In this document: in pieces, positions 11,548 to 42,008 of the stretch
How the letters are laid out: every line of letters starts with the position of its first letter
Position numbering within the stretch: position 1 is the stretch's first letter
DNA from: a virus
Taxonomy: Duplodnaviria > Heunggongvirae > Uroviricota > Caudoviricetes
IMG/VR virus record: IMGVR_UViG_2541047944_000003
Location: 1 to 44,708 of that record
DNA: 44,708 nt
Strand: one strand, 5' to 3'
The notes under the pieces: model-generated
The model's input: only the letters and a program-made list of their open reading frames with translations
What the model was told of the DNA's origin: nothing
The model's database searches: none
Made by a program: the position numbers and the translations under genes

Positions 11548-13194
11548 ATGTGTGAAACCTATATTTTTAGGTTCCGTGACCTAGGAAAAAGTGAAGGATT
11601 TACCATCGAACAACACAATAACATTGCTCGCCAAGAAGGGAATGTTTGGTGGGGGTGGTGGGCTAAATCTGGTGAGCGTTTCCCATCACTGGAACTAAAA
11701 AATGCGGCAGAAAAAAATAAACAAATATATTTTTTTGATTCAGGGCGGCTTAAATTTTATACCGCTGTATTAAAGGATACTTGCTCGTCAGCTTTAGGGG
11801 ATATAAAAAAACAATCTCCTAAGGATGGTCGCAGAACCCCAGCATATTATAATGAGAATGAGTTGCTGGGATGGTTAAATGTTTCTGAGATTACAGAAAT
11901 TGATGCTTGTGATATCCTCAGAAAATTCACATATATTCCATTGGATGCATTGTTTGCAGGTAATAAAGATTTAGATGAGCAACTTTTCAACAAAATTGTC
12001 TTTTCTTCAGCTGAATTAAAAAAACAAGATAGAACTATTTGGAAGATTAGACCTGCAAATGATAAAGATTTACAGCATGAGTCATTAGCATCTCATTATG
12101 TTCCTTATAATTTCAGTCGGAAGTATAGCCAAAAAAAAGGGGAGTTTATAATTTGGCTTTCGGATATTCATTTTGATGGCGGAAATGGGAAACATGCATT
12201 TCCGACACAAGATAATGATCAGCTAAAATGTTTATCCTCTCGAGTGGTGGAGTTGGCTGGAAAATATAATAATGGGAGTAAATGTGCTGGGTTGGCTATT
12301 TCAGGTGATTTGACGTGGCAGTCACAGAAAGAGGGATTCAAGCAAGCTTTGAATTTTATCAAAGATGTTAGTTCTTCTCTTAGCCTGACAACGGATGATA
12401 TAATTATTTGTCCTGGGAATCACGATGTAGGTCTGGTTTCTAAAGATGAGTACTTTAAAATCGTGGGTAAGCCTGTAACGGATAAACCATGGAAAATTCT
12501 GGCGGAAAACTACCATAGAGAAAGTAAACTTAATTATATAAAATTTTATCGAGATTTTTTTCAAAGGGAACCTGAAGAAAATTTATCACAAGGAAGGAAA
12601 TTTTTACTAGGTGGCCATAAAGTTGTTGAAATAGCCGCATTGAACTCATGCGTATTACAACAAGTAAAAGATTCATTTTTGGGCATGGGATTTGTCGGTG
12701 AGCAACAACTCAGTGATGTTGCAAAATCTATGGGATGGATGAATGATAGCGGAGGTGATATACTCAAAAAGAAAGGTGTTATAAGAATTGCTATGCTTCA
12801 CCATCACCTAACTTCTATTAATGAAGTTGAAGATGCCTATCTTGATTCAAGATATAGTGTAACATTAGATGCAGAGCGATTATTACGTTGGGTAGTAAGG
12901 CATAAAGTTGATTATATTCTGCATGGTCATATGCACAGAAGTAGTTCTATTACAATAACAAAAAAACTATCTCCGTTAGAACCAGTGACGGATTCAAATC
13001 CTGAACATACATTCCAAATTGTTTCTTTGGGAAGTTCAGGAGTTGTTAGTTCGGAATTGCCAAGTCAGGATTGTGCTAACTATGCATGCGTACTGGATTT
13101 TTCTGGCGAAAAGCTAACTTTTAATTTTTTCAAGCTTGATAAACAGAGCGGAGAAAAAGTGGCGGCTACTTATATTGTTGAAGGTTTATTATGA
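11548..13194 (+). CDS. calcineurin-like metallophosphoesterase with unknown ~190-aa N-terminal domain (548 aa)
   Basis: Ordered motifs SDIHFDGG (DxH), ISGDLTW (GD), CPGNHD (GNHD), MLHHH, LHGHMH (GHxH); GAGGA RBS; AT-rich. Confidence 0.7.
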   Translation: MCETYIFRFRDLGKSEGFTIEQHNNIARQEGNVWWGWWAKSGERFPSLELKNAAEKNKQIYFFDSGRLKFYTAVLKDTCSSALGDIKKQSPKDGRRTPAYYNENELLGWLNVSEITEIDACDILRKFTYIPLDALFAGNKDLDEQLFNKIVFSSAELKKQDRTIWKIRPANDKDLQHESLASHYVPYNFSRKYSQKKGEFIIWLSDIHFDGGNGKHAFPTQDNDQLKCLSSRVVELAGKYNNGSKCAGLAISGDLTWQSQKEGFKQALNFIKDVSSSLSLTTDDIIICPGNHDVGLVSKDEYFKIVGKPVTDKPWKILAENYHRESKLNYIKFYRDFFQREPEENLSQGRKFLLGGHKVVEIAALNSCVLQQVKDSFLGMGFVGEQQLSDVAKSMGWMNDSGGDILKKKGVIRIAMLHHHLTSINEVEDAYLDSRYSVTLDAERLLRWVVRHKVDYILHGHMHRSSSITITKKLSPLEPVTDSNPEHTFQIVSLGSSGVVSSELPSQDCANYACVLDFSGEKLTFNFFKLDKQSGEKVAATYIVEGLL

Positions 13195-14027
13195 AATTAC
13201 TTATTACTGATTTGGATAATACACTGTACGATTGGGTGAGTTTTTACTCCCAGTCATTTAGTGCCATGGCAGAGCAATTATCTAAGGATATTGATGTGCC
13301 TTTGGATACGCTCCTGTCAGAATATAAAACCATTCATCAGAAGTTTGGTAACTCAGAAAAACCATTTGCTACTTTAGAGCTACCATCTGTGATATCTTAC
13401 TTTGGAACTAATGATAAAACGATTTTGCAGGAAAAACTTACTAATGTTTTTCAGGCGTTTAGCACAAAACGTAACCAGACATTAATGTTGTATCCTACTG
13501 TAAAAGAAACGCTGGAATTATTGAAGAAACGGGGGGTAAAAATTGTAGGGCATACTGAAGCTTTGGAGTTTAATTCTTTATATCGTCTGAATAAGCTTGG
13601 TATAATTGATTTTTTTGATCATCTTTATACATTGGAAGATATTCATAATATCCACCCGAATCCCAAAAATGCGAAAAAAATACCTGTGAAGGATGACTTT
13701 GTAATTAGATTGTCCTGCGCTGAGTCAAAGCCAAACCCTAAATTGCTTGAGCACATATGTTCTTTTGAAGGAGTTAGTGTTGAAGATGCGGTATACATTG
13801 GCGATTCTATAACTAAAGATATGTCCATGGCTAAAGCTGTGGGGGTTACTGCTGTTTGGGCTAATTATGGGCGACAGTTTTCACCTGAATTGTGGAAAGT
13901 TTTAGTGAAAATCACACACTGGAAAGATGCAGATGTGGAGAGGGAGGAACAACTTAGAAAAGCATTCTCCAATGTTAGACCTGATTATGTTGTTAATAGT
14001 TTTTCAGAGCTGCTGAATTTGAAATGA
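13191..14027 (+). CDS. HAD-superfamily phosphatase/hydrolase (278 aa)
   Basis: Motif I LITDLDNT (DxDxT), motif IV IGDSITKD; ATGA start/stop overlap with upstream gene. Confidence 0.7.
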   Translation: MKLLITDLDNTLYDWVSFYSQSFSAMAEQLSKDIDVPLDTLLSEYKTIHQKFGNSEKPFATLELPSVISYFGTNDKTILQEKLTNVFQAFSTKRNQTLMLYPTVKETLELLKKRGVKIVGHTEALEFNSLYRLNKLGIIDFFDHLYTLEDIHNIHPNPKNAKKIPVKDDFVIRLSCAESKPNPKLLEHICSFEGVSVEDAVYIGDSITKDMSMAKAVGVTAVWANYGRQFSPELWKVLVKITHWKDADVEREEQLRKAFSNVRPDYVVNSFSELLNLK

Positions 14028-15884: not shown

Positions 15885-16021
15885 TGTTTGAGTCTTATAT
15901 GGCAGAACGTCTTCGCCGCCGCTGGGTGCGCCTGCGCTTATATCGTTTTCCTGGTTCTGTTTTGACCGATTACCGGATACTGAAGAATTACGCCAAAACA
16001 CTGAAAGGAGCATGTGTATGA
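15881..16021 (+). CDS. ylcG: YlcG-like small protein (46 aa)
   Basis: [41 protein letters not shown]..., ATGA overlap with rusA stop. Confidence 0.6.
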
Positions 16022-16106
16022 AGTCAGAGATAACAATCGACTAATACTGTTTTGTTGATTTTTGCTTGTAATTGGCGTTCTGGCCTAATTTTTGTGGAGT
16101 AAGTTG

Positions 16107-16490
16107 ATGCGTGATGTTCAGATGGTTCTTGAGCGTTGGGGGGCGTGGGCAGCTAATAATCATGAAGATGTGACCTGGTCGTCCATTGCTGCCGGTTTTA
16201 AGGGATTAATTCCTTCAAAAGTAAAATCTCGCCCGCAATGTTGTGACGATGACGCGATGATCATTTGCGGGTGCATGGCCCGTCTGAAAAAGAACAACAG
16301 CGATTTACACGATTTATTAGTAGATTATTATGTATGTGGTATGACATTCATGTCACTGGCAAGTAAGCATTGCTGCTCGGATGGTTATATCGGGAAAAGG
16401 TTACAGAAGGCTGAGGGCATAATTGAAGGGATGTTAATGGCATTAGATATCCGGTTAGATATGGATATCGTTGCTAATAATTCTAATTGA
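16107..16490 (+). CDS. Q: late-gene antiterminator Q (QuuD-like)
   Basis: [25 protein letters not shown]... with Cys cluster [12 protein letters not shown], matching DLP12 QuuD as remembered. Confidence 0.8.
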
Positions 16491-16514
16491 TATGCAATTA
16501 TTTACTAAAAGTTA

Positions 16515-16541
16515 TTAAAAATGGGGCGTGGAAACGCCCCC
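16515..16541 (-). terminator. intrinsic terminator candidate for the porin gene
   Basis: Hairpin GGGGCG-tggaaa-CGCCCC with a T-run on the minus strand. Confidence 0.45.
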
Positions 16542-16627
16542 AAAGTAAAGGGTAATATATAACAGAAGGTTTATATAGTAAGAAGCAAGGTAGTGCTTCT
16601 AAAGGAAGTGGCTTGAGGGCTCCACTT

Positions 16628-16668
16628 ATATGTTGCGGAGGCAAAGCCTCCCGCAACATATCTTTTTC
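16628..16668 (+). terminator. strong intrinsic terminator downstream of Q (tR'-like candidate)
   Basis: Long hairpin ATATGTTGCGGAGG-caaag-CCTCCCGCAACATAT followed by CTTTTT. Confidence 0.6.
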
Positions 16669-16678
16669 GTAAGTCAGA

Positions 16679-17761
16679 TTAGAACTGATAAACCAGACCT
16701 ACAGCGACGATGTCGTCGGTATCAATACCAGCTGTTTTGGTAAACTTACTATCGTCAATTAAGTTGATTTTGTAATCAACAAAAGTGGACATGTTTTTAT
16801 TAAAGTAGTAAGTAGCACCGACATCGACATACTTGACTAAGTCTCGGTCACCATGAACACCAAGGTCTTTACCTTTTGACTGAAGGTAAGCAACAGATGG
16901 GCGCAGACCGAAGTCAAACTGATATTGTGCTACTGCTTCAAAGTTTTGTGCTTTGTTTGCAATATGGTTATTACCAAAAACGGTCATATTCTGAGTTTCA
17001 GAATATGTGGTAGCCAGATAGATATTGTTCGCATCATATTTCAGGCCTGCAGCCCATACTTCCGCATTTTTGCCGGAGGCATTGAATTTGCTCTTACCAT
17101 AGGCGACCTGACCGTCAGTGCGATCTGATTTAGCATAGGTTGCACCCACGCCGAATCCTTCATACTCATAAGTAGTGGAGAAACCGAAACCATCACCATT
17201 GGCTTCAGTTACGTCAGTGCGGTCATTTTTACCCTGATACTGAGCAGCAAAGTTCAGGCCATCGACCAGACCAAAGAAGTCGTTGTTACGATAAGTTGCA
17301 ACACCAGTAGTGCGACCAGTCATGAACACATCTGTTTGGGTCCAGGTATCACCACCGAATTCTGGCAGAACGTCAGTCCACGCACCGATGTCGTATGCTA
17401 CACCGTAGTTACGGCCGTAATCGATTGAGCCGTAATCACCAAATTTCAGGCCTGCAAATGCAAGACGGGTTTTGTCTTTGGAAGAACCTTGAGATTCAGC
17501 ACGGTTGCCTTTGAATTCATATTCCCACTGACCGAAACCAGTCAGTTGATCGTTGATTTGGGTTTCACCTTTGAAGCCAAGACGGGCATAAGTAGTATCA
17601 CCATCATCTGCATCATTAGAGGAGAAGTAGTGCTTGGCATTAACTTTCCCGTATAGATCCAGCTTGTTACTGTCTTTATTATAAATTTCAGCTGCCTGAG
17701 CAGACATCGCCATCAGTACTGATGCAGCTACAGCAGAAATTGCCACTGTTAATTTTTTCAT
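16679..17761 (-). CDS. nmpC: OmpC-family outer membrane porin (NmpC/Lc-like)
   Basis: Signal peptide [39 protein letters not shown] start and C-terminal VGLVYQF typical of enterobacterial general porins; intact, no IS interruption. Confidence 0.85.
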
Positions 17762-18187
17762 TGTACGCCCTTTTTTTGAACTATTATTAAAAAATGATGT
17801 CACTGCGCGATAAATATTCATCTAATCAATGTGATTATTTCAAGATGTAAGTTTTAGTTTCTCATTTAATTTGTGAAGTAGATCTCTATTTTTATCTGAA
17901 CCTTTTCTATCTAATCCTATTCATGGCTCTTGTTTGAACGAAAATAAATCTATTAGCTAATTTATATTAATGGCACTTATTTATAAGCACTCTATAATTC
18001 TTTAGCTTAATTTAAACAAACTAAAAATAACATCGGAAATTATTCATTGGTTATTTGTTGAAGTTTTCTTATGTATTTGTGGTGGTGTTTTGAACACTCG
18101 GTGGCATTCTCACAAATATCATTTAGTAGTTTACGTACGTAAAAAATTGGTTATGCTGTTAAGAGTGGTTACTTCGTCACACAGCTT

Positions 18188-18220
18188 AAACCCGCCGTCG
18201 AGCGGGTTTTTCCATTTTTT
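18188..18220 (+). terminator. intrinsic terminator candidate upstream of the lysis cassette
   Basis: Hairpin AAACCCGC-cgtcga-GCGGGTTT followed by TTCCATTTTTT. Confidence 0.5.
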
Positions 18221-18349
18221 GAGTCTCGATATTAGCTGATAACCCAATACCTGAGTTATTCACTGACTCCGAATCTGTTACGTTTCTGCCTTTATTGCGA
18301 TACGTAGTATCCCCTTAATTTACACCCGCTTTGTCTGCGAGGTGGGGTT

Positions 18350-18565
18350 ATGAAATCCATGGATAAGTTAACAACGGGTGTCGCCTATGGCACCTCAGCA
18401 GGTAGTGCCGGGTACTGGTTTTTACAGTTGCTCGATAAAGTCACGCCCTCACAGTGGGCGGCAATAGGTGTGCTGGGTAGTCTGGTATTTGGCTTGCTGA
18501 CGTATCTGACAAACCTTTATTTCAAGATTAAAGAAGATAAGCGTAAGGCTGCGAGAGGTGAATAA
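18350..18565 (+). CDS. S: class II holin (pinholin, S21-type)
   Basis: 71-aa product with two TM segments and dual-start MKSMDK motif, matching phage 21 S as remembered. Confidence 0.85.
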
Positions 18566-19062
18566 TGTCGCCATCATTACGCAAGGCTATTGCTGCTGCT
18601 ATTGGTGGTGGGGCTGTTGCCATAGCGTCTGTGCTCATCACTGGTCCGAGTGGTGACGATGGCCTGGAAGGTGTCAGCTACATACCATACAAAGATATTG
18701 TTGGTGTATGGACTGTATGTCACGGGCATACAGGAAAAGACATCATGCTCGGTAAAACGTATACCAAAGCAGAATGCAAAGCACTCTTGAATAAAGACCT
18801 TGCCACTGTCGCCAGACAAATTAACCCGTACATCACAGTCGATATACCGGAAACAACGCGCGGCGCTCTTTACTCATTCGTTTACAACGTGGGCGCTGGC
18901 AATTTCAGAACATCGACGCTTCTTCGCAAAATAAACCAGGGCGATATCAAAGGCGCATGTGATCAGCTACGGCGCTGGACATACGCTGGCGGTAAGCAAT
19001 GGAAAGGGCTGATGACTCGCCGTGAGATTGAGCGTGAAGTCTGTTTGTGGGGGCAACAATGA
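18565..19062 (+). CDS. R: SAR endolysin (lysozyme with N-terminal signal-anchor-release domain)
   Basis: Gly/Ala-rich hydrophobic N-terminus ([18 protein letters not shown]) then lysozyme-like domain; follows holin with 1-nt overlap. Confidence 0.8.
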
Positions 19063-19502
19063 GCAGAGTAACCGCGATTATCTCCGCTCTGGTTATCTGC
19101 ATCATCGTCTGCCTGTCATGGGCTGTTAATCATTACCGTGATAACGCCATCGCCTACAAAGAGCAGCGCGACAAAGCCGCATCTACTATCGCTGACATGC
19201 AGAAGCGTCAACGTGATGTAGCAGAACTCGACGCCAGATACACAAAGGAGCTTGCTGATGCTAACGCGACTATCGAAAGTCTACGTGCTGATGTTTCTGC
19301 TGGTCGTAAGTGGCTGCACGTCAAAGCAGTCTGTCCGGACAAGCATAAAACCACCGCCGCCTCCGGCGTGGATGATGCTTCCAGCCCCAGACTTACTGAC
19401 ACCGCTCAACGGGATTATTTCGTTCTCAGAGAGCGCATCGAAACCATAACTAACCAATTGAATGGCCTGCAAGAGTATGTGAGATCACAGTGCTCATATT
19501 AG
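19059..19502 (+). CDS. Rz: i-spanin Rz
   Basis: N-terminal TM helix then coiled-coil; ATGA overlap with endolysin stop. Confidence 0.75.
19252..19449 (+). CDS. Rz1: o-spanin Rz1 (lipoprotein) embedded in Rz in the +1 frame
   Basis: Lipobox LVVSGC followed by proline-rich [10 protein letters not shown], as in lambda Rz1. Confidence 0.7.
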
Positions 19503-19576: not shown

Positions 19577-21148
19577 TTACTGAGAGCTCAGATCAACTTT
19601 CCAGGGCAACAGATCGCGTACCCGGTTTGCCGGCCAGTCCTGGATATGTTCAATGACGTAACGCAGCCACTTTTCTGGCTCCACATTGTTCAGACGGCAT
19701 GTGCCGATCAGCGAGTACAACACCGCCGCATGTTCACCACCGCTGTCGGAACCCGCGAACATCCAGTTTTTCCGGCCTACGGCCACTCCCCGTAAGGCGT
19801 TCTCTGCGATGTTGTTGTCGATTTCCACCCAGCCATTACTGCAGTACACGTTCAGTGCATCCCACTGTTTCAGCAGGTATGCGAACGCTTTTGCCGTATC
19901 TGAGTGACGCGACAGTGTTTTCATCTGTTGCTGTATCCAGTCATACAGTGACTGCATCAGTGGCGCGGCTCTGGCTTTTCTTGCCGCCAGACGCTGTTCT
20001 GCTGAACAGCCCCGGACCTCTGCCTCGATGGCATACAGTTCACCGATACGCTGCAGGGCTTCCGTGGTGATGTAGGTGGACGCTCTTGCATGCACATCGT
20101 GGATTTTTCTCCGGGCATGAGCCATACACGCGGCTTCCGTTATTCTGCCGGATTCGTATAACGCCCGGTAACCACCGTAAGCATCGGCCTGAAGCACACC
20201 GCTGTAACCGGCCAGGTGATTTTGTGGATGGATACCTTTCCGGTCCGGACTGTACGCGAACCAGACCGCCGGGGGCATCTGTGAACCGGCGTTACGGTCA
20301 TCACGGACGTAGACCCACAGCCGGGCTGTCCGGGTTTTACCGCTGCCCGGCTCCTGGACCGGGACGGGGATATCATCAGCATGGACTTTACCGGGCATCA
20401 GCACATACTGGCGCAGGACGTCATACAGCGGCTCCAGCAGTTCAGCAACAGCACCTGTCCAGCGCCCCAGTGTGGCACGGCTCAGCTCCACTCCCTGACG
20501 ACGGTATATTTCTGACTGGCGGTATAACGGCAGATGGTCTGCATATTTCCCGGTGACAACATGGGCCAGAAGCCCCGCTCCGGCATAACTGCGTGCAATG
20601 GGTTTTGAAGGTACTGGTGCCTGCACGATATGGTCGCACCGGCAACAGGCCTGTTTCGGACGTTGTGTTTCGATAACCTTAAAGGCGCTGCTGATAAGCT
20701 CCAGTTGCTCTGACACATCACATCCCAGAGAACTGAGTTCACCACCACAGGCAGGACAGCATTCCTCTTCCGGCCGGATAACCCGGGTTTCACGGGGAAG
20801 TGAGGCCGGTAACGGTTTACGGGCTGAAGACTGGCGCAGGGCGGATGGCAGTACCGGGTCATATTGCTCACCCAGCGTTTCCGCCATTTCTTCCTGAAGT
20901 GCGCTGATTCGCTCCTGTGCTTCCTGTATCTGCCGTTCGGTTTTTGCACGAAGTTTTTCTGAGCTTTTACCGAACTGCATACGTTGCAGTTTCGCAACCA
21001 GCGCCTTCAGCCGGTTGATTTCGGAAGCATAAGCCGCCACCCGCTGTGAGAGCAGGCGGTTGTATTCAGCCATCTGGCGGATGGTGTCCTGTTGCGTCTG
21101 CAACAGTGCCCGCAGGCGGGCGTTCTCATGAGCAAGTGAGGTGTCCAT
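19577..21148 (-). CDS. tnpC: IS66-family transposase TnpC (523 aa)
   Basis: Coiled-coil N-terminus, Cys-rich zinc-ribbon region and DDE-type core typical of IS66 transposases. Confidence 0.85.
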
Positions 21149-21167
21149 ATCCTCACTTTACAACGGG

Positions 21168-21515
21168 TTATATGCGGATTCCAGCGCGTTCCGTTCGTTT
21201 CGGGTGCTTCCAGTTGATACCTTCAAGAAGCATGGATAACTGAGCCGGAGTAAGGTGCACCTTGCCGTCACGGGTGACTGGCCAGACGAAGCGGCCCCGC
21301 TCCAGGCGTTTGGTGAAGAGGCACAGTCCGTCACTGTCAGCCCACAACACTTTTATCTGGTCACCCCGGCGTCCGCGGAAGATGAACAGGTGTCCGGAGA
21401 ACGGGTCATCCTTCAGGACGTTCTGAACTTTTGATGCCAGGCCGTTAAAGCCATTTCGCATATCGGTGATACCTGCAACCAGCCAGATACGCGAACCTGC
21501 AGGGAGAGATATCAT
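21168..21515 (-). CDS. tnpB: IS66-family accessory protein TnpB (Orf2)
   Basis: 115-aa product with GITDMRNGFNGLA...IFRGRRGDQIKVLW typical of IS66 Orf2. Confidence 0.8.
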   Translation of the reverse strand: MISLPAGSRIWLVAGITDMRNGFNGLASKVQNVLKDDPFSGHLFIFRGRRGDQIKVLWADSDGLCLFTKRLERGRFVWPVTRDGKVHLTPAQLSMLLEGINWKHPKRTERAGIRI

Positions 21516-22192
21516 CAGTGGCTGCTCCCTTTTATTTCGCGGATAAGTGTCTGTAATAACGCCGGCGTCAGTTTACCTTTAAGCCTGAGAGTTCCGGCCG
21601 GCAGAACCAGCTCACAACACAGACTGTCGGACGGTGTATTTATCTGCTCTGGTTCCTGTGCGGGGGCCGGGATTTTATTATCCGGCTCCGGCGTTAACGT
21701 CACGGGAAGCAGTGCCGGCATATTTTTTCCGGAAGGCAGCAGGCCACCTTTCCGGTATTGATGACGCCAGTTGAAGAGCAGGTTATCGTTGATTCCGTTT
21801 TCCCGGGCGATCTGCGCCACACAGGCTCCGGGCTGCAGTGACTGCTCCACTAAGGCGATTTTAAACTCATAAGGGAAGTTGGGCCGCCGGGGACGTTTTT
21901 TTACCACGGGGGCTTCGGATATAACGGTGCTTTCAGGACGTACGACTGGTACCGTGGAAAATTGTCCGTAAAGGCAGGCATCAAGTTCCTGCTCCGACAT
22001 GCCTGCGGGCAAAGGCCACGAAAGGCCAGCTCTCCGAAAGCGCACGAACATACTACAAACTGTTGATTTTGGTACACCCAGGCGACGCCCGGCCACAACC
22101 CGGGGTAAATGTTCTTCAAAGTGAAGACGTAAAGCTTCAGTGATCCAGGTCCGGTGTTTCATACGATAGTGTCCATTAAAAATGATGGACAT
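21515..22192 (-). CDS. tnpA: IS66-family accessory protein TnpA (Orf1) with extended N-terminal HTH-like region
   Basis: C-terminal half carries IS66 Orf1-like KRPRRPNFPYEFKIALVEQS segment; true start uncertain. Confidence 0.65.
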   Translation of the reverse strand: MSIIFNGHYRMKHRTWITEALRLHFEEHLPRVVAGRRLGVPKSTVCSMFVRFRRAGLSWPLPAGMSEQELDACLYGQFSTVPVVRPESTVISEAPVVKKRPRRPNFPYEFKIALVEQSLQPGACVAQIARENGINDNLLFNWRHQYRKGGLLPSGKNMPALLPVTLTPEPDNKIPAPAQEPEQINTPSDSLCCELVLPAGTLRLKGKLTPALLQTLIREIKGSSH

Positions 22193-38525: not shown

Positions 38526-41500
38526 ATGGGTAAAGGCAGCAGTAAGGGGCATACCCCGCGCGAAGCGAAGGACAACCTGAAATCCACGCAGTTGCTGAGT
38601 GTGATCGATGTCATCAGCGAAGGGCCGGTTGAAGGTCCGGTGGATGGGTTAAAAAGCGTGCTGCTGAACAGTACGCCGGTGCTGGACAGTGAGGGGAATA
38701 CCAATATCTCCGGTGTCACGGTGGTGTTCCGGGCAGGTGAGCAGGAGCAGACACCGCCGGAGGGGTTTGAATCCTCCGGCTCCGAGACGGTGCTGGGTAC
38801 GGAAGTGAAATATGACACGCCGATCACCCGCACCATCACGTCGGCAAACATCGACCGTCTGCGTTTTACTTTCGGCGTGCAGGCACTGGTGGAAACCACC
38901 TCAAAAGGGGACCGGAATCCGTCGGAAGTCCGCCTGCTGGTTCAGATACAGCGTAACGGTGGCTGGGTGACGGAAAAAGACATCACCATTAAGGGCAAAA
39001 CCACCTCACAGTATCTGGCCTCGGTGGTGGTGGATAACCTGCCGCCGCGCCCGTTTAATATCCGGATGCGCAGAATGACGCCGGACAGCACCACAGACCA
39101 GCTGCAGAACAAAACGCTCTGGTCGTCATACACCGAAATTATCGATGTGAAACAGTGCTACCCGAACACGGCACTGGTCGGCGTGCAGGTGGATTCGGAG
39201 CAGTTCGGCAGCCAGCAGGTGAGCCGTAATTATCATCTGCGCGGGCGCATTCTGCAGGTGCCGTCGAACTATGATCCGGAAAAACGCACTTACAGCGGTA
39301 TCTGGGACGGAACGTTAAAACCGGCATACAGCAACAACATGGCCTGGTGTCTGTGGGATATGCTGACCCATCCGCGCTACGGCATGGGGAAACGTCTTGG
39401 TGCGGCGGATGTGGATAAATGGGCGCTGTATGTCATCGGCCAGTACTGTGACCAGTCTGTACCGAATGGTTTTGGTGGAACGGAGCCGCGCATCACCTGT
39501 AACGCTTACCTGACCACACAGCGTAAGGCGTGGGATGTTCTCAGTGATTTCTGCTCGGCGATGCGCTGTATGCCGGTATGGAACGGGCAGACGCTGACGT
39601 TCGTGCAGGACCGACCGTCGGATAAGGTGTGGACCTATAACCGCAGTAATGTGGTGATGCCGGATGATGACGCGCCGTTCCGCTACAGCTTCAGCGCCCT
39701 GAAGGACCGCCATAATGCCGTTGAGGTGAACTGGATTGACCCGAACAACGGCTGGGAGACGGCAACAGAGCTCGTGGAGGACACGCAGGCCATTCTCCGT
39801 TACGGTCGTAACGTCACGAAGATGGATGCCTTTGGCTGTACCAGCCGGGGGCAGGCACACCGCGCCGGGCTGTGGCTGATTAAAACAGAACTGCTGGAAA
39901 CGCAGACCGTGGATTTCAGCGTCGGCGCAGAAGGGCTTCGCCATGTACCGGGCGATGTTATTGAAATCTGTGATGATGACTATGCCGGTATCAGCACCGG
40001 TGGTCGTGTGCTGGCGGTGAACAGCCAGACCCGGACGCTGACGCTCGACCGTGAAATCACGCTGCCATCCTCCGGTACCACGCTGATAAGCCTGGTTGAC
40101 GGAAGTGGCAATCCGGTCAGCGTGGAGGTTCAGTCCGTCACCGACGGCGTGAAGGTAAAAGTGAGCCGTGTTCCTGACGGTGTTGCTGAATACAGCGTGT
40201 GGGGGCTGAAGCTGCCGACGCTGCGCCAGCGCCTGTTCCGCTGCGTGAGTATCCGTGAGAACGACGACGGCACGTATGCCATCACCGCCGTGCAGCATGT
40301 ACCGGAAAAAGAGGCCATCGTGGATAACGGGGCGCACTTTGACGGCGACCAGAGCGGCACGGTGAATGGTGTCACGCCGCCAGCGGTGCAGCACCTGACC
40401 GCCGAAGTCACCGCAGACAGCGGGGAATACCAGGTGCTGGCGCGCTGGGACACGCCGAAGGTGGTGAAGGGCGTGAGCTTCCTGCTCCGTCTGGCCGTGG
40501 CAGCGGACGACGGCAGTGAGCGGCTGGTCAGCACGGCCAGGACGACGGAAACCACATACCGCTTCAGGCAACTGGCGCTGGGGAACTACAGGCTGACAGT
40601 CCGGGCAGTAAATGCGTGGGGGCAGCAGGGCGATCCGGCGTCGGTATCGTTCCGGATTGCCGCACCGGCAGCGCCGTCGCGGATTGAGCTGACGCCGGGC
40701 TATTTTCAGATAACTGCCACGCCGCATCTTGCGGTTTATGATCCGACGGTACAGTTTGAGTTCTGGTTCTCGGAAACGCGGATTACCGATATCAGGCAGG
40801 TTGAAACCACAGCCCGCTATCTTGGCACGGCGCTGTACTGGATAGCCGCCAGTATCAATATCAAACCGGGCCGTGATTATTATTTTTACATCCGCAGTGT
40901 GAACACCGTTGGCAAATCGGCATTTGTGGAGGCTGTTGGCCAGCCGAGTGATGATGCATCCGGCTATCTGGATTTTTTCAAAGGAGAGATAGGGAAAACC
41001 CATCTGGCTCAGGAGTTGTGGACGCAGATTGATAACGGTCAGCTTGCGCCTGACCTGGCGGAAATCAAAACGTCCATCACGGATGTCAGTAATGAAATCA
41101 CGCAGACCGTCAATAAGAAACTGGAAGACCAGAGTGCAGCGATCCAGCAGATACAGAAGGTTCAGGTTGATACAAATAATAACCTGAACAGCATGTGGGC
41201 TGTGAAGCTGCAGCAGATGCAGGACGGACGCCTTTATATCGCGGGTATTGGTGCCGGTATTGAAAACACCCCTGACGGCATGCAGAGTCAGGTGCTGCTG
41301 GCGGCAGACAGGATTGCGATGATTAATCCTGCGAATGGCAACACAAAGCCGATGTTTGTTGGGCAGGGCGATCAGATATTCATGAACGAAGTGTTCCTGA
41401 AATATCTGACGGCTCCCACCATTACCAGCGGTGGCAATCCCCCAACGTTTTCACTGACACCTGATGGTCGATTTTCTGCGAAAAATGCGGATATCAGCGG

Positions 41501-42008
41501 TAACGTGAACGCGAACTCCGGGACGCTCAACAACGTCACGATTAATCAGAACTGTCGGATTCTGGGAAAACTGTCAGCTAACCAGATTGAAGGTGATATT
41601 GTCAAAACGGTGGGAAAAGCCTTTCCGAGAAATGGCAGTTATGCCAGCGGTACAATAACGGTCACTGTGTACGATGACCAGGCTTTTGACCGTCAGATAG
41701 TAGTCCCCCCCGTTCTGTTTCGTGGGGGTAAGCATGAAAACTTCAACAGCAACAACCAACAGTCATACTGGTATTCAACCTGTAAGCTGCAGGTACTGAA
41801 GAACGGACAGGAAATCTTTCAGCAACCCGCGACGGATGTCAGCAGGGTATTTTCATCAGTCATTGATATGCCTGCCGGACACGGCCATGTCACCCTGACT
41901 TTCAATGTTTCTTCATATGGTGCTAATAACTGGACGCCAACGACCAGTATCAGCGACCTTCTTGTTGTTGTGATGAAGAAATCTACAGCCGGTATCAGTA
42001 TCAGTTGA
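38526..42008 (+). CDS. J: central tail fiber / host specificity protein J with divergent C-terminal receptor-binding region
   Basis: N-terminal ~800 aa match lambda J as remembered; C-terminal ~350 aa differ and the protein is 1160 aa versus 1132 aa in lambda. Confidence 0.95.

Follow-up and report, generated by a model that had tools for sequence, protein, structure and literature searches.

Phage-borne porins of the Lc/NmpC type have long been known from DLP12/PA-2-like prophages of E. coli, and the locus described here already has two described counterparts: lc of phage PA-2, deposited in 1986 (GenBank J02580; Blasband, Marcotte and Schnaitman 1986), and nmpC of the K-12 prophage DLP12. 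The PA-2 record holds the same gene in the same place and orientation, with R and Rz downstream; it annotates a 23-aa signal peptide and an upstream CRP site, both of which are also present in our sequence, and no S, late promoter or 3' UTR RNA. DLP12 shows the gene order ybcN-ninE-ybcO-rusA-ylcG-quuD-nmpC-essD-rrrD-rzpD, with nmpC split by IS5 after codon 346. In PA-2 lysogens, Lc replaces OmpC, the receptor of PA-2. The nmpC 3' UTR has been described as the small RNA IpeX, which is processed from the porin mRNA, is about 167 nt long, lies between the porin stop codon and quuD (PMC12197685) and represses ompC and ompF (PMC12197685; PMC5069750).

We analysed a 44,708-nt tailed-phage sequence (Caudoviricetes; IMG/VR record IMGVR_UViG_2541047944_000003), hereafter the window, whose gene order at this locus is identical to that of DLP12. 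Unlike DLP12, which is a remnant, the window runs on into terminase, head and tail genes, with an IS66 element after Rz, and its porin gene is intact. The PA-2 record matches the window with 89% DNA identity over 83% of a 2.6-kb query. We consider it likely (probability about 0.85) that the window carries a DLP12/PA-2-type right arm in which a self-contained porin lysogeny module fills a cargo slot separating Q from its cognate late promoter and is not part of the late transcription unit. The directly observed basis of this reading comprises the gene content, the terminators, the homology and position of the late promoter (PR') cassette, the covariation of Q with a palindrome in that cassette, and the frequency of the layout among related loci.

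The porin gene and its 3' UTR

The porin gene (16679–17761, minus strand) lies antisense between Q (16107–16490) and the holin gene S (18350) of a lambdoid prophage. Its reading frame extends over 16679–17821 in the ORF list, and the start is most likely the ATG at 17761, giving a protein of 360 aa. The Pfam Porin_1 match (PF00267) spans the whole model (positions 1–337 of 337, E 2.2e-151), and residues 24–360 can be aligned along their whole length with solved chains of OmpC, OmpK36 and PhoE. The frame is uninterrupted by insertion sequences and ends in an aromatic residue (...GLVYQF), while the first 23 residues (17693–17761) read as a signal peptide, as annotated in PA-2 lc. Compared with the 365-aa PA-2 Lc protein, the porin is 90.7% identical over 365 aa, with the differences concentrated in a few variable segments. 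The sequence-only reading of this DNA had called a full-length OmpC-family porin on the minus strand, with a signal peptide and no IS interruption, and the domain match, the structure alignment and the intact ORF confirm this. Its view of the porin as a lysogenic-conversion gene is likewise supported; the idea is an old one, being the established reading for PA-2 lc (GenBank J02580) and DLP12 nmpC, and the arrangement itself is ordinary. The C-terminus of the phage J protein, examined with regard to receptor use and OmpC self-exclusion, has its best match in mEp460-type J.

Upstream of the gene, the porin 5' UTR and promoter region (17762–17900, minus strand) has an identity of 0.94–0.99 among porin-bearing sequences. 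The CRP site annotated in PA-2 maps to 17869–17889 and is invariant in the window, PA-2 and K-12; no porin promoter hexamers were identified within 17762–17900.

Downstream, fold, conservation and a match to phage 434B define a 166-nt porin 3' UTR (16513–16678, minus strand), a putative homologue of IpeX. It is predicted to fold into five hairpins (-53.6 kcal/mol, z -6.4). Among 23 distinct porin-bearing sequences, the stretch 16490–16669 has a mean pairwise identity of 0.93–0.985 (30-nt blocks), exceeding that of parts of the porin coding sequence. The Q–porin spacer and the part of 434B that derives from DLP12 share 92.6% identity over 201 nt, and 16491–16680 was found only in the company of the porin (36 of 36 records). 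The IpeX family is absent from Rfam, and an Rfam search of 15900–18700 at a permissive threshold returned only sau-19 and Trp_leader, at chance level and both well below the gathering score. Both the 166-nt length and the intrinsic-terminator end agree with the reported IpeX, and the Q–porin spacer matches this published small RNA, the porin 3' UTR.

The porin/IpeX transcript ends at a minus-strand intrinsic terminator (16513–16540; stem 16523–16540, U run 16513–16522), called by consensus scan and fold (-13.8 kcal/mol, z -4.0) and present as the same element at other porin loci. This terminator had been overlooked in the sequence-only reading. At their 3' ends, the predicted porin/IpeX and Q transcripts would share about 150 nt (16513–16668) and could act on one another as antisense RNAs. 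Two small open reading frames were set aside as non-coding: a 53-aa minus-strand ORF (16498–16659), which has no Pfam match and lies wholly inside the porin 3' UTR region, and 'ORF1' of PA-2, which overlaps the 3' end of the porin gene.

Q and the terminator that follows it

Q (16107–16490, plus strand) encodes a 127-aa late antiterminator of the QuuD type (PF06530, E 1.5e-53); the ORF list places its start at TTG 16092. The protein is 95% identical to DLP12 Q, 80% to the Q of VT2-Sakai/933W and 32% to Q21, and it matches the solved Q21 chains 6p18 and 6jnx. Beyond the gene, a plus-strand hairpin (stem 16628–16661) is followed by C and TTTTT to 16667, together forming an intrinsic terminator (16628–16668; -21.9 kcal/mol, z -6.7) that none of 200 shuffled sequences equalled in folding. 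A consensus scan missed it because a C precedes the T run. This terminator probably ends the Q (early-right) transcript.

Its complement forms the first stem-loop of the IpeX-like RNA, so that the same hairpin could be read as a structural IpeX stem only, with an incidental likeness to a plus-strand terminator and no insulation of Q transcription. We regard this as rather unlikely, although its helix comes first in the predicted 3' UTR fold and is the strongest there, and the T run is short (5 T after C) and uncalled by the consensus scan. With 14 bp of GC-rich stem ahead of CUUUUU, the element makes a plausible terminator, and the two roles can coexist. Moreover, plus-strand terminators lie directly after Q, at most 75 nt away, in front of unrelated minus-strand cargo lacking IpeX at other loci (L072, L013, L064, L031 and L015). 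As a terminator, the element would stop unmodified early-right transcription after Q and could keep convergent transcripts off the porin and IpeX in the lysogen. In lytic growth, N-type antitermination may still carry early transcripts across the porin in antisense.

The late promoter cassette and the predicted start of late transcription

The window segment 18126–18212 is homologous to the late promoter, qut and first terminator that directly follow Q in 933W/VT2-Sakai; homology to VT2-Sakai opens 4 nt before the -35 and closes in the T run of the terminator, and the match to the annotated Stx-phage segment covers 18127–18211. Within the cassette, PR' (18130–18157, plus strand; -35 TTTACG, 16-nt spacer, -10 TATGCT) has its aligned counterpart in the late promoter annotated for VT2-Sakai and for SC370, and the DLP12 cassette is almost identical base for base. 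The second 'CRP site' of the PA-2 record coincides with the proposed PR' leader. The distance from PR' to the StxS 3' end has been given as 258 nt (PMC7547250), which puts the 933W start 7 nt after the annotated -10. The corresponding window position is 18164 (about 577,229 on the plus strand of K-12 MG1655), and the most likely site for late transcription to begin is thus close to 18164, downstream of the porin.

Both hexamers match the consensus at 4 of 6 positions, which is weak, and PR' was not called by the promoter scan. Positions 2 (A) and 6 (T) of the -10 are conserved across 80 distinct modules. The related loci were gathered by requiring 16 nt of the cassette to match exactly, which makes the conservation of that core circular, and the IMG/VR contigs are redundant. 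Among the 23 distinct porin-bearing sequences, identity over 18140–18199 is 0.997. The PR' core motif occurs once in the window, with no second copy.

A perfect palindrome, TTTACGTACGTAAA, covers the -35 (18130–18143, plus strand). Its sequence covaries across loci with the class of the Q C-terminal helix, in adjacent and displaced layouts alike; the 933W version reads TTTACGATCGTAAA and a further class AACGCGTACGCAAA. This covariation suggests that the palindrome is the probable Q-binding element (QBE), and it offers a simple means of locating late promoters in the Q933W/QuuD family. At the putative transcript start, the invariant block TAAGAGTGGTTAC (18160–18172, plus strand; one exact copy in the window) forms part of qut. 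It covers about -4 to +9 and is present in PA-2, 434B, K-12 DLP12, VT2-Sakai, SC370 and SfII; its TAAGAG resembles the TAAGCTG of phage 21, at a different offset. No clear TAnnnT pause element was found downstream of TAAGAGTGGTTAC.

The late terminator tR' (18188–18220, plus strand) corresponds to about +25 to +55 of the PR' transcript and consists of a stem (18188–18209) followed by TTTTTCCATTTTTT. It was called by the terminator scan, and its homologue in VT2-Sakai is the first terminator annotated behind PR'. The fold taken by itself is weak (-12.2 kcal/mol, z -2.3); a hairpin with a T run nevertheless occupies this position in 42 of 55 distinct leaders, comprising 30 different hairpin sequences, versus 24 of 275 shuffles. 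Folds, scan and conservation thus uphold the earlier observation that plus-strand terminators flank the porin at 16628–16668 and 18188–18220, and the second is the late terminator because the PR' cassette homologue sits downstream of the porin. As the only candidate late terminator of the window, it may be leaky, since the Stx-phage hairpin homologous to 18188–18215 is evidently read through without Q, given that the StxS 3' end lies 258 nt beyond PR' (PMC7547250). Gene calls and Pfam place the lysis cassette beyond it (18350–19502, plus strand), with S (18350–18565, an S21-type holin), R (18565–19062, a SAR-type lysozyme) and Rz (19047–19502) with embedded Rz1, an order matching essD-rrrD-rzpD/rzoD of DLP12.

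Together, these elements suggest how the locus would operate. The porin would be a 'moron' that brings along an upstream control region, a signal peptide, a structured 3' UTR and a minus-strand terminator of its own. Late transcription would begin at PR' (18130–18157), near 18164 and 186 nt upstream of S, and since this start lies downstream of the porin, the porin would be outside the late transcription unit. Without Q, PR' transcripts would stop at 18188–18220; Q would bind the palindrome at 18130–18143 and modify RNA polymerase, which could then read into S-R-Rz and beyond. The lysogen, in turn, would make the porin, and the 3' UTR would lower host OmpC and OmpF, altering permeability and the display of phage receptors.

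An improbable alternative is that the main Q-responsive lysis promoter lies further upstream, with 18130–18157 a relic or a secondary site. A σE-like plus-strand site (17778–17804; GAACTA, 16 nt, TCACT), whose spacing as read from the sequence is compatible with σE, apparently corresponds to the published DLP12 'essDp'. The DLP12 lysis promoter was cloned as -121 to +650, citing Rueggeberg 2015 (PMC7918800), and the forward primer Pdlp12Fw, stated as -121, maps to 17689–17708, which would place the published +1 near 17810 (about 576,874 on the plus strand of K-12); the reverse primer from the same source has no window match within 3 mismatches. This apparent placing of a Q-responsive, σE-type promoter near 17778–17810 rather than at 18130–18157 counts against our main reading. 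Work by Toba in 2013 and by Rueggeberg in 2015 is said to have found essD expression dependent on Q and RpoE. The region is also conserved (0.986–0.988 among the 23 distinct porin-bearing sequences), but the stretch doubles as porin 5' UTR and promoter, which accounts for this conservation, and it has no counterpart in 933W, SfII or other cargo types. The 18126–18212 cassette, by contrast, is common to 933W, SfII and other cargo types and covaries with Q. Loading of Q-family proteins furthermore requires a promoter-proximal σ70-dependent pause beside the QBE (bioRxiv 10.1101/651190). Transcripts from near 17810 would be about 380 nt long by the time they reached the terminator at 18188–18220. 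The candidate, too, lies downstream of the porin coding sequence and therefore does not rescue the sequence-only model.

That model, in which PR' follows Q immediately, as in lambda, 21, 82 and 933W, and Q-modified polymerase reads through both terminators and 1.1 kb of antisense porin before S, leaving the porin an antisense gene inside the late operon that is silenced by late transcription, draws on the canonical cassette with PR' immediately after Q (bioRxiv 10.1101/651190; phage 21 and VT2-Sakai), on a terminator 140–180 nt after Q, about where tR' is expected, and on the antisense cargo known inside the phi80 late operon (PMC11364771), but it is very hard to sustain: the promoter scan found no σ70-like plus-strand site, and we found no copy of the family promoter or leader motif, in 16491–16680 directly after Q, a stretch that corresponds to the porin 3' UTR/IpeX and travels only with the porin, while the complete 933W promoter-qut-terminator homologue, with the palindrome matching the Q class, sits at 18126–18212. 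Thus the intact antisense porin between Q and S and its role in lysogenic conversion stand, but its placement in the late leader, and with it the claim that late transcripts are Q-antiterminated through some 1.7 kb of antisense porin, does not; the late promoter maps, computationally, downstream of the porin. A σ70-like site within the spacer (17970–17998; ATGGCA, 17 nt, TATAAT) was rejected as late promoter, being in the least conserved part of the spacer (0.79–0.89) and having no 933W or SfII counterpart. No relic of a Q 3' end, as left by duplication or by insertion within Q, was found upstream of PR'.

Layout among related loci and known systems

The same 2.6-kb arrangement occurs in 36 phage records, PA-2 lc and 434B among them, and of 5426 complete E. 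coli genomes, 2392 carry at least 80% of the 2.6-kb locus. We examined 95 loci in which Q lies upstream of a PR' motif. In 34 of them the cassette adjoins Q (gaps of -2 to 44 nt), while the remaining 61 have gaps of 624–3041 nt, filled with mostly minus-strand cargo such as porin, Kiwa and other defence genes. In the window, 1.64 kb separate the Q stop codon from the -35, and the promoter is not immediately after Q; since Q and promoter are similarly displaced in 61 of the 95 loci, this is a common variant layout and does not exclude the window from the Q21/Q933W family. Besides the porin with IpeX, the slot has been seen to hold Kiwa, a KAP NTPase, an HNH protein and other defence candidates. 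For the Q933W/QuuD family at large, the evidence is evenly poised for a broader proposal: the Q-to-PR' junction may be reserved for cargo that is expressed in lysogeny, almost invariably encoded on the minus strand, kept clear of the late unit and often protected from early-right read-through by a plus-strand terminator directly after Q, with the promoter palindrome and the Q C-terminal helix as a readable specificity code.

Because the late promoter of this Q family can be kilobases from Q, a position between Q and the lysis genes does not by itself put a gene in the late transcript. Correcting the plausible but wrong reading bears on the annotation of the very common DLP12/PA-2-type prophages, and on predicting whether their cargo, porins and defence systems alike, is expressed in lysogens and shut off or unaffected in lytic growth. 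It is already established that the porin and its 3' UTR RNA remodel the porin content of the outer membrane, and this bears on phage adsorption and on the entry of antibiotics.

Compared with 933W/VT2-Sakai, the window has a homologous Q (family PF06530), -35, -10, leader and hairpin terminator. Phage 21, annotated in the order -35, QBE, -10, start, pause element and terminator at +2 to +50, likewise has a short terminated leader, but its QBE is a direct repeat, whereas the putative QBE of the window is a palindrome. In both 933W and phage 21, Q reaches at its 3' end up to the promoter or into it; in the window the promoter is 1.64 kb off, with the porin module between. The cargo of Stx phages (tRNAs and stx) lies on the plus strand downstream of PR', in contrast to the minus-strand cargo upstream of PR' in the window. 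The phi80 taiEcA 'noncontiguous operon' similarly places a lysogeny-expressed minus-strand gene near Q-controlled late genes, and there the late transcript crosses the antisense immunity gene and lowers its expression (PMC11364771). Since the late promoter of the window lies downstream of the porin, coupling of the phi80 type is not expected here.

A complete porin gene and its terminators

The minus-strand ORF at 16679-17821 matches Porin_1 over the whole model (E 2e-151), which upholds the sequence-only reading that a complete porin is encoded between Q and the lysis genes. Translation likely begins at the ATG at 17761, for a protein of 360 aa; AEIYNK follows a 23-residue porin leader, at the position where the solved OmpC, OmpK36, and PhoE chains start aligning, and the C-terminus is ...VYQF. 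The 127-aa Q antiterminator (16107-16490, PF06530) lies 5' of the porin on the plus strand, and domain matches place an S21-type holin (18350-18565), a lysozyme (18565-19062), and Rz (19047-19502) downstream. The CRP site annotated in phage PA-2 maps to 17869-17889 and is invariant across the window, PA-2, and K-12. Identity among phage copies falls to 0.69-0.81 in the porin segments 16730-16759, 16850-16879, 17060-17119, and 17210-17239, compared with >0.9 in the rest of the gene, as expected if these were surface loops under diversifying selection. Over its last 300 aa (41106-42005, plus strand), the tail-tip protein J shares 99.7% identity with an mEp460-type phage and 88% with an Stx2a phage; comparison with these matches gave no receptor assignment.

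The two plus-strand terminators reported to flank the porin are likewise present. The first (16628-16668) has a 14-bp stem (-21.9 kcal/mol, z -6.7), and the second (18188-18220), an 8-bp GC-rich stem followed by a T run, was matched by the terminator scan, its hairpin being modest as a fold alone (z -2.3). Terminator scan and folding further identified a minus-strand terminator at 16513-16540 that had been overlooked. It forms the 3' end of a 166-nt RNA running from 16678 to 16513 on the porin strand, with five hairpins (-53.6 kcal/mol, z -6.4). The Q-porin spacer is found solely alongside the porin (36/36 records), and its identity of 0.93-0.985 among 23 distinct porin-bearing sequences exceeds that of parts of the porin CDS. 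Rfam contains no model for such an RNA; judged by sequence, the spacer matches IpeX, a published small RNA from the nmpC 3' UTR. The complement of the first IpeX stem is the plus-strand terminator 16628-16668, which probably also serves as the terminator of the Q transcript, since terminators on the plus strand recur within 75 nt 3' of Q ahead of unrelated cargo (loci L072, L013, L064, L031, and L015). Termination at 16668 and a porin transcript end at 16513 imply that the predicted Q and porin transcripts overlap by ~150 nt at their 3' ends.

Predicted position of the late promoter

When the porin-S spacer served as query in a sensitive search, 18127-18211 matched ~300 Stx-phage records. In VT2-Sakai and SC370, the matched segment lies directly after Q and is annotated as "putative late promoter", "Q-utilization", and "rho-independent terminator". 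Counterparts align for the -35 TTTACG, the 13-nt block TAAGAGTGGTTAC, and the hairpin and T run; at the aligned -10, TATGCT in the window faces TATCAT in the annotated segment. Local homology runs from 18126 (4 nt 5' of the -35) to 18212 (in the T run), and upstream of 18126 this alignment shows no remnant of the Q 3' end. Experiments have established the late promoter in Stx phages. VT2-Sakai Q shares 80% identity with the window's Q, and Q21 only 32%; a shared target is therefore expected. The 258 nt from PR' to the StxS 3' end (PMC7547250) fit a start 7 nt past the annotated -10, from which we infer a late transcript start near 18164 in the window. The layout of the family is set out in the curated phage 21 record, where a -35, Q-binding element (QBE), and -10 precede the start, followed by a pause element, with the terminator at +2 to +50, and a general Q late cassette has been described (bioRxiv 10.1101/651190). 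TAAGAGTGGTTAC occurs as a single copy in the window, and the promoter scan found no sigma-70-like plus-strand site between Q and the porin. Together with the homology, these results place the late promoter computationally downstream of the porin, and they contradict the earlier proposal that the porin lies within the late-operon leader and that late transcripts are Q-antiterminated through ~1.7 kb of antisense porin sequence.

A different start for lysis-gene transcription is suggested by a sigma-E-like site (GAACTA, 16 nt, TCACT) near 17778-17810 on the plus strand. According to the cloning description in a later paper (PMC7918800), the DLP12 lysis promoter was cloned as -121 to +650 "after Rueggeberg 2015"; the forward primer given there maps to 17689-17708, placing the +1 near 17810, which the site adjoins. 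On this description, the site is apparently the published DLP12 promoter essDp. The PR' homologue follows 354 nt downstream, and the porin start codon abuts the site in a back-to-back arrangement; the site, too, is downstream of the porin CDS. The hairpin at 18188-18215 may also be leaky: its Stx-phage homologue (764-786 in locus L003) must be read through without Q, because StxS RNA ends 258 nt past PR' at a second terminator (PMC7547250). The terminator scan detected no second plus-strand terminator before S in the window, and some basal lysis-gene expression in this prophage is therefore possible, which would fit reports of DLP12 lysis-gene activity in uninduced cells (PMC7918800).

A predicted, displaced late promoter linked to Q

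Related loci were collected by scanning IMG/VR for exact matches to the 16-nt TGNTAAGAGTGGTTAC and locating Q homologues in the returned loci. This choice makes conservation of the core circular, and IMG/VR contains redundant entries; information comes from the flanks, gap distribution, and covariation. Of the 95 loci in which Q precedes the motif, 34 show the canonical adjacent promoter, with the Q stop -2 to 44 nt from the motif, and the displaced layout is common, with 624-3041 nt between Q and motif in the remaining 61. The insert is a porin in 27 of these 61; the others carry cargo of unrelated kinds, almost always encoded on the minus strand, including a lipoprotein and, in loci L008, L013, L021, L028, L031, L054, L066, and L077, Kiwa KwaA/KwaB, a KAP NTPase (PDC-S20), an HNH protein (PDC-M68A), PDC-S42, PDC-M53A, an NYN protein, or an esterase. 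Terminators with a hairpin and T run are kept in 42/55 distinct leaders, through 30 different hairpin sequences (shuffled controls, 24/275). Among the 23 porin-bearing sequences, identity is 0.997 over 18140-18199 and 0.74-0.95 in the AT-rich surroundings. Elsewhere in the window, a two-gene plus-strand cassette of low GC (11548-14027, ~0.36) separates the replication genes from the nin region. Its products are a 548-aa protein of PUA-like plus calcineurin-like phosphoesterase type and a 278-aa HAD hydrolase matching the PADLOC "Hydrolase" model (4e-57); the cassette has the appearance of a second module of cargo or defence genes.

A palindrome over the late-promoter -35 (18130-18143 in the window) varies in step with the Q C-terminal helix in at least seven pairings (window, L003-L128). 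TTTACG(AT/TA)CGTAAA, the class of 933W and the window, accompanies ...CSD..IGKRL.KAEG; GCGGTCCGC accompanies ...KDEKLIRIEIQ, AACGCGTACGCAAA ...CSDGTIRKELQ, and TTCGTTACGAA ...CSEGKIR. Each of these pairings occurs in adjacent and displaced layouts alike, the behaviour expected of a QBE, and the 18126-18212 cassette is thus tied to the window's Q at any distance. The palindrome is probably the QBE of the Q933W branch, in contrast to the direct-repeat QBE annotated for phage 21.

With the late promoter downstream of the porin, the lysogen would transcribe the porin leftward from its own control region, including the CRP site, to 16513, and an IpeX-like RNA would arise from its 3' UTR. Stray rightward reads through Q would end at 16668, a putative insulating role for that terminator. 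PR' (18130-18157) would be constitutively active and, if the downstream terminator is efficient, end at 18188-18220; on induction, Q would bind the palindrome, load on polymerase near the start, and pass the terminator into S-R-Rz and beyond. As the porin lies 5' of the PR' unit, antitermination through antisense porin sequence would not be needed; antiterminated early-right transcripts might still cross the porin in lytic growth. An IS66-family element (19577-22192, minus strand; TnpC 19577-21148, TnpB 21168-21515, HTH/TnpA 21515-22192) sits directly after Rz/Rz1 in the late operon, before the terminase genes, an insertion that may weaken late expression of the prophage.

Relation to known loci

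From the NinB-like gene through Rz, gene order equals that of K-12 DLP12 (ybcN-ninE-ybcO-rusA-ylcG-quuD-nmpC-essD-rrrD-rzpD), in which nmpC is split by IS5, whereas the window's porin is complete. The 2.6-kb Q-to-S stretch is near-complete in 36 phage records, including PA-2 (1986) and 434B, and at least 80% of it is found in 2392/5426 complete E. coli genomes. The PA-2 record (J02580) annotates lc with a signal peptide and two "CRP binding sites", leaves S unannotated, and labels the endolysin ORF2 under the gene name Rz. One of these CRP sites (1730-1750) corresponds to 18164-18184 in the window, which is conserved late-promoter leader common to phages without a porin. The window's porin belongs to the Lc/NmpC group, and the locus is already well known; the element that the sequence-only reading added, a porin inside the late operon, is unsupported. 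Two side results may be less fully documented: the general slot for minus-strand cargo between Q and PR', and the pairing of palindrome with Q helix. In phage phi80, taiEcA is an antisense gene inside the late operon (PMC11364771), and its defining feature, a late promoter upstream of the antisense gene, is absent from the window. The window's late cassette represents the Q933W branch of the Q21/Q933W family, from which it departs in that its promoter stands apart from Q.
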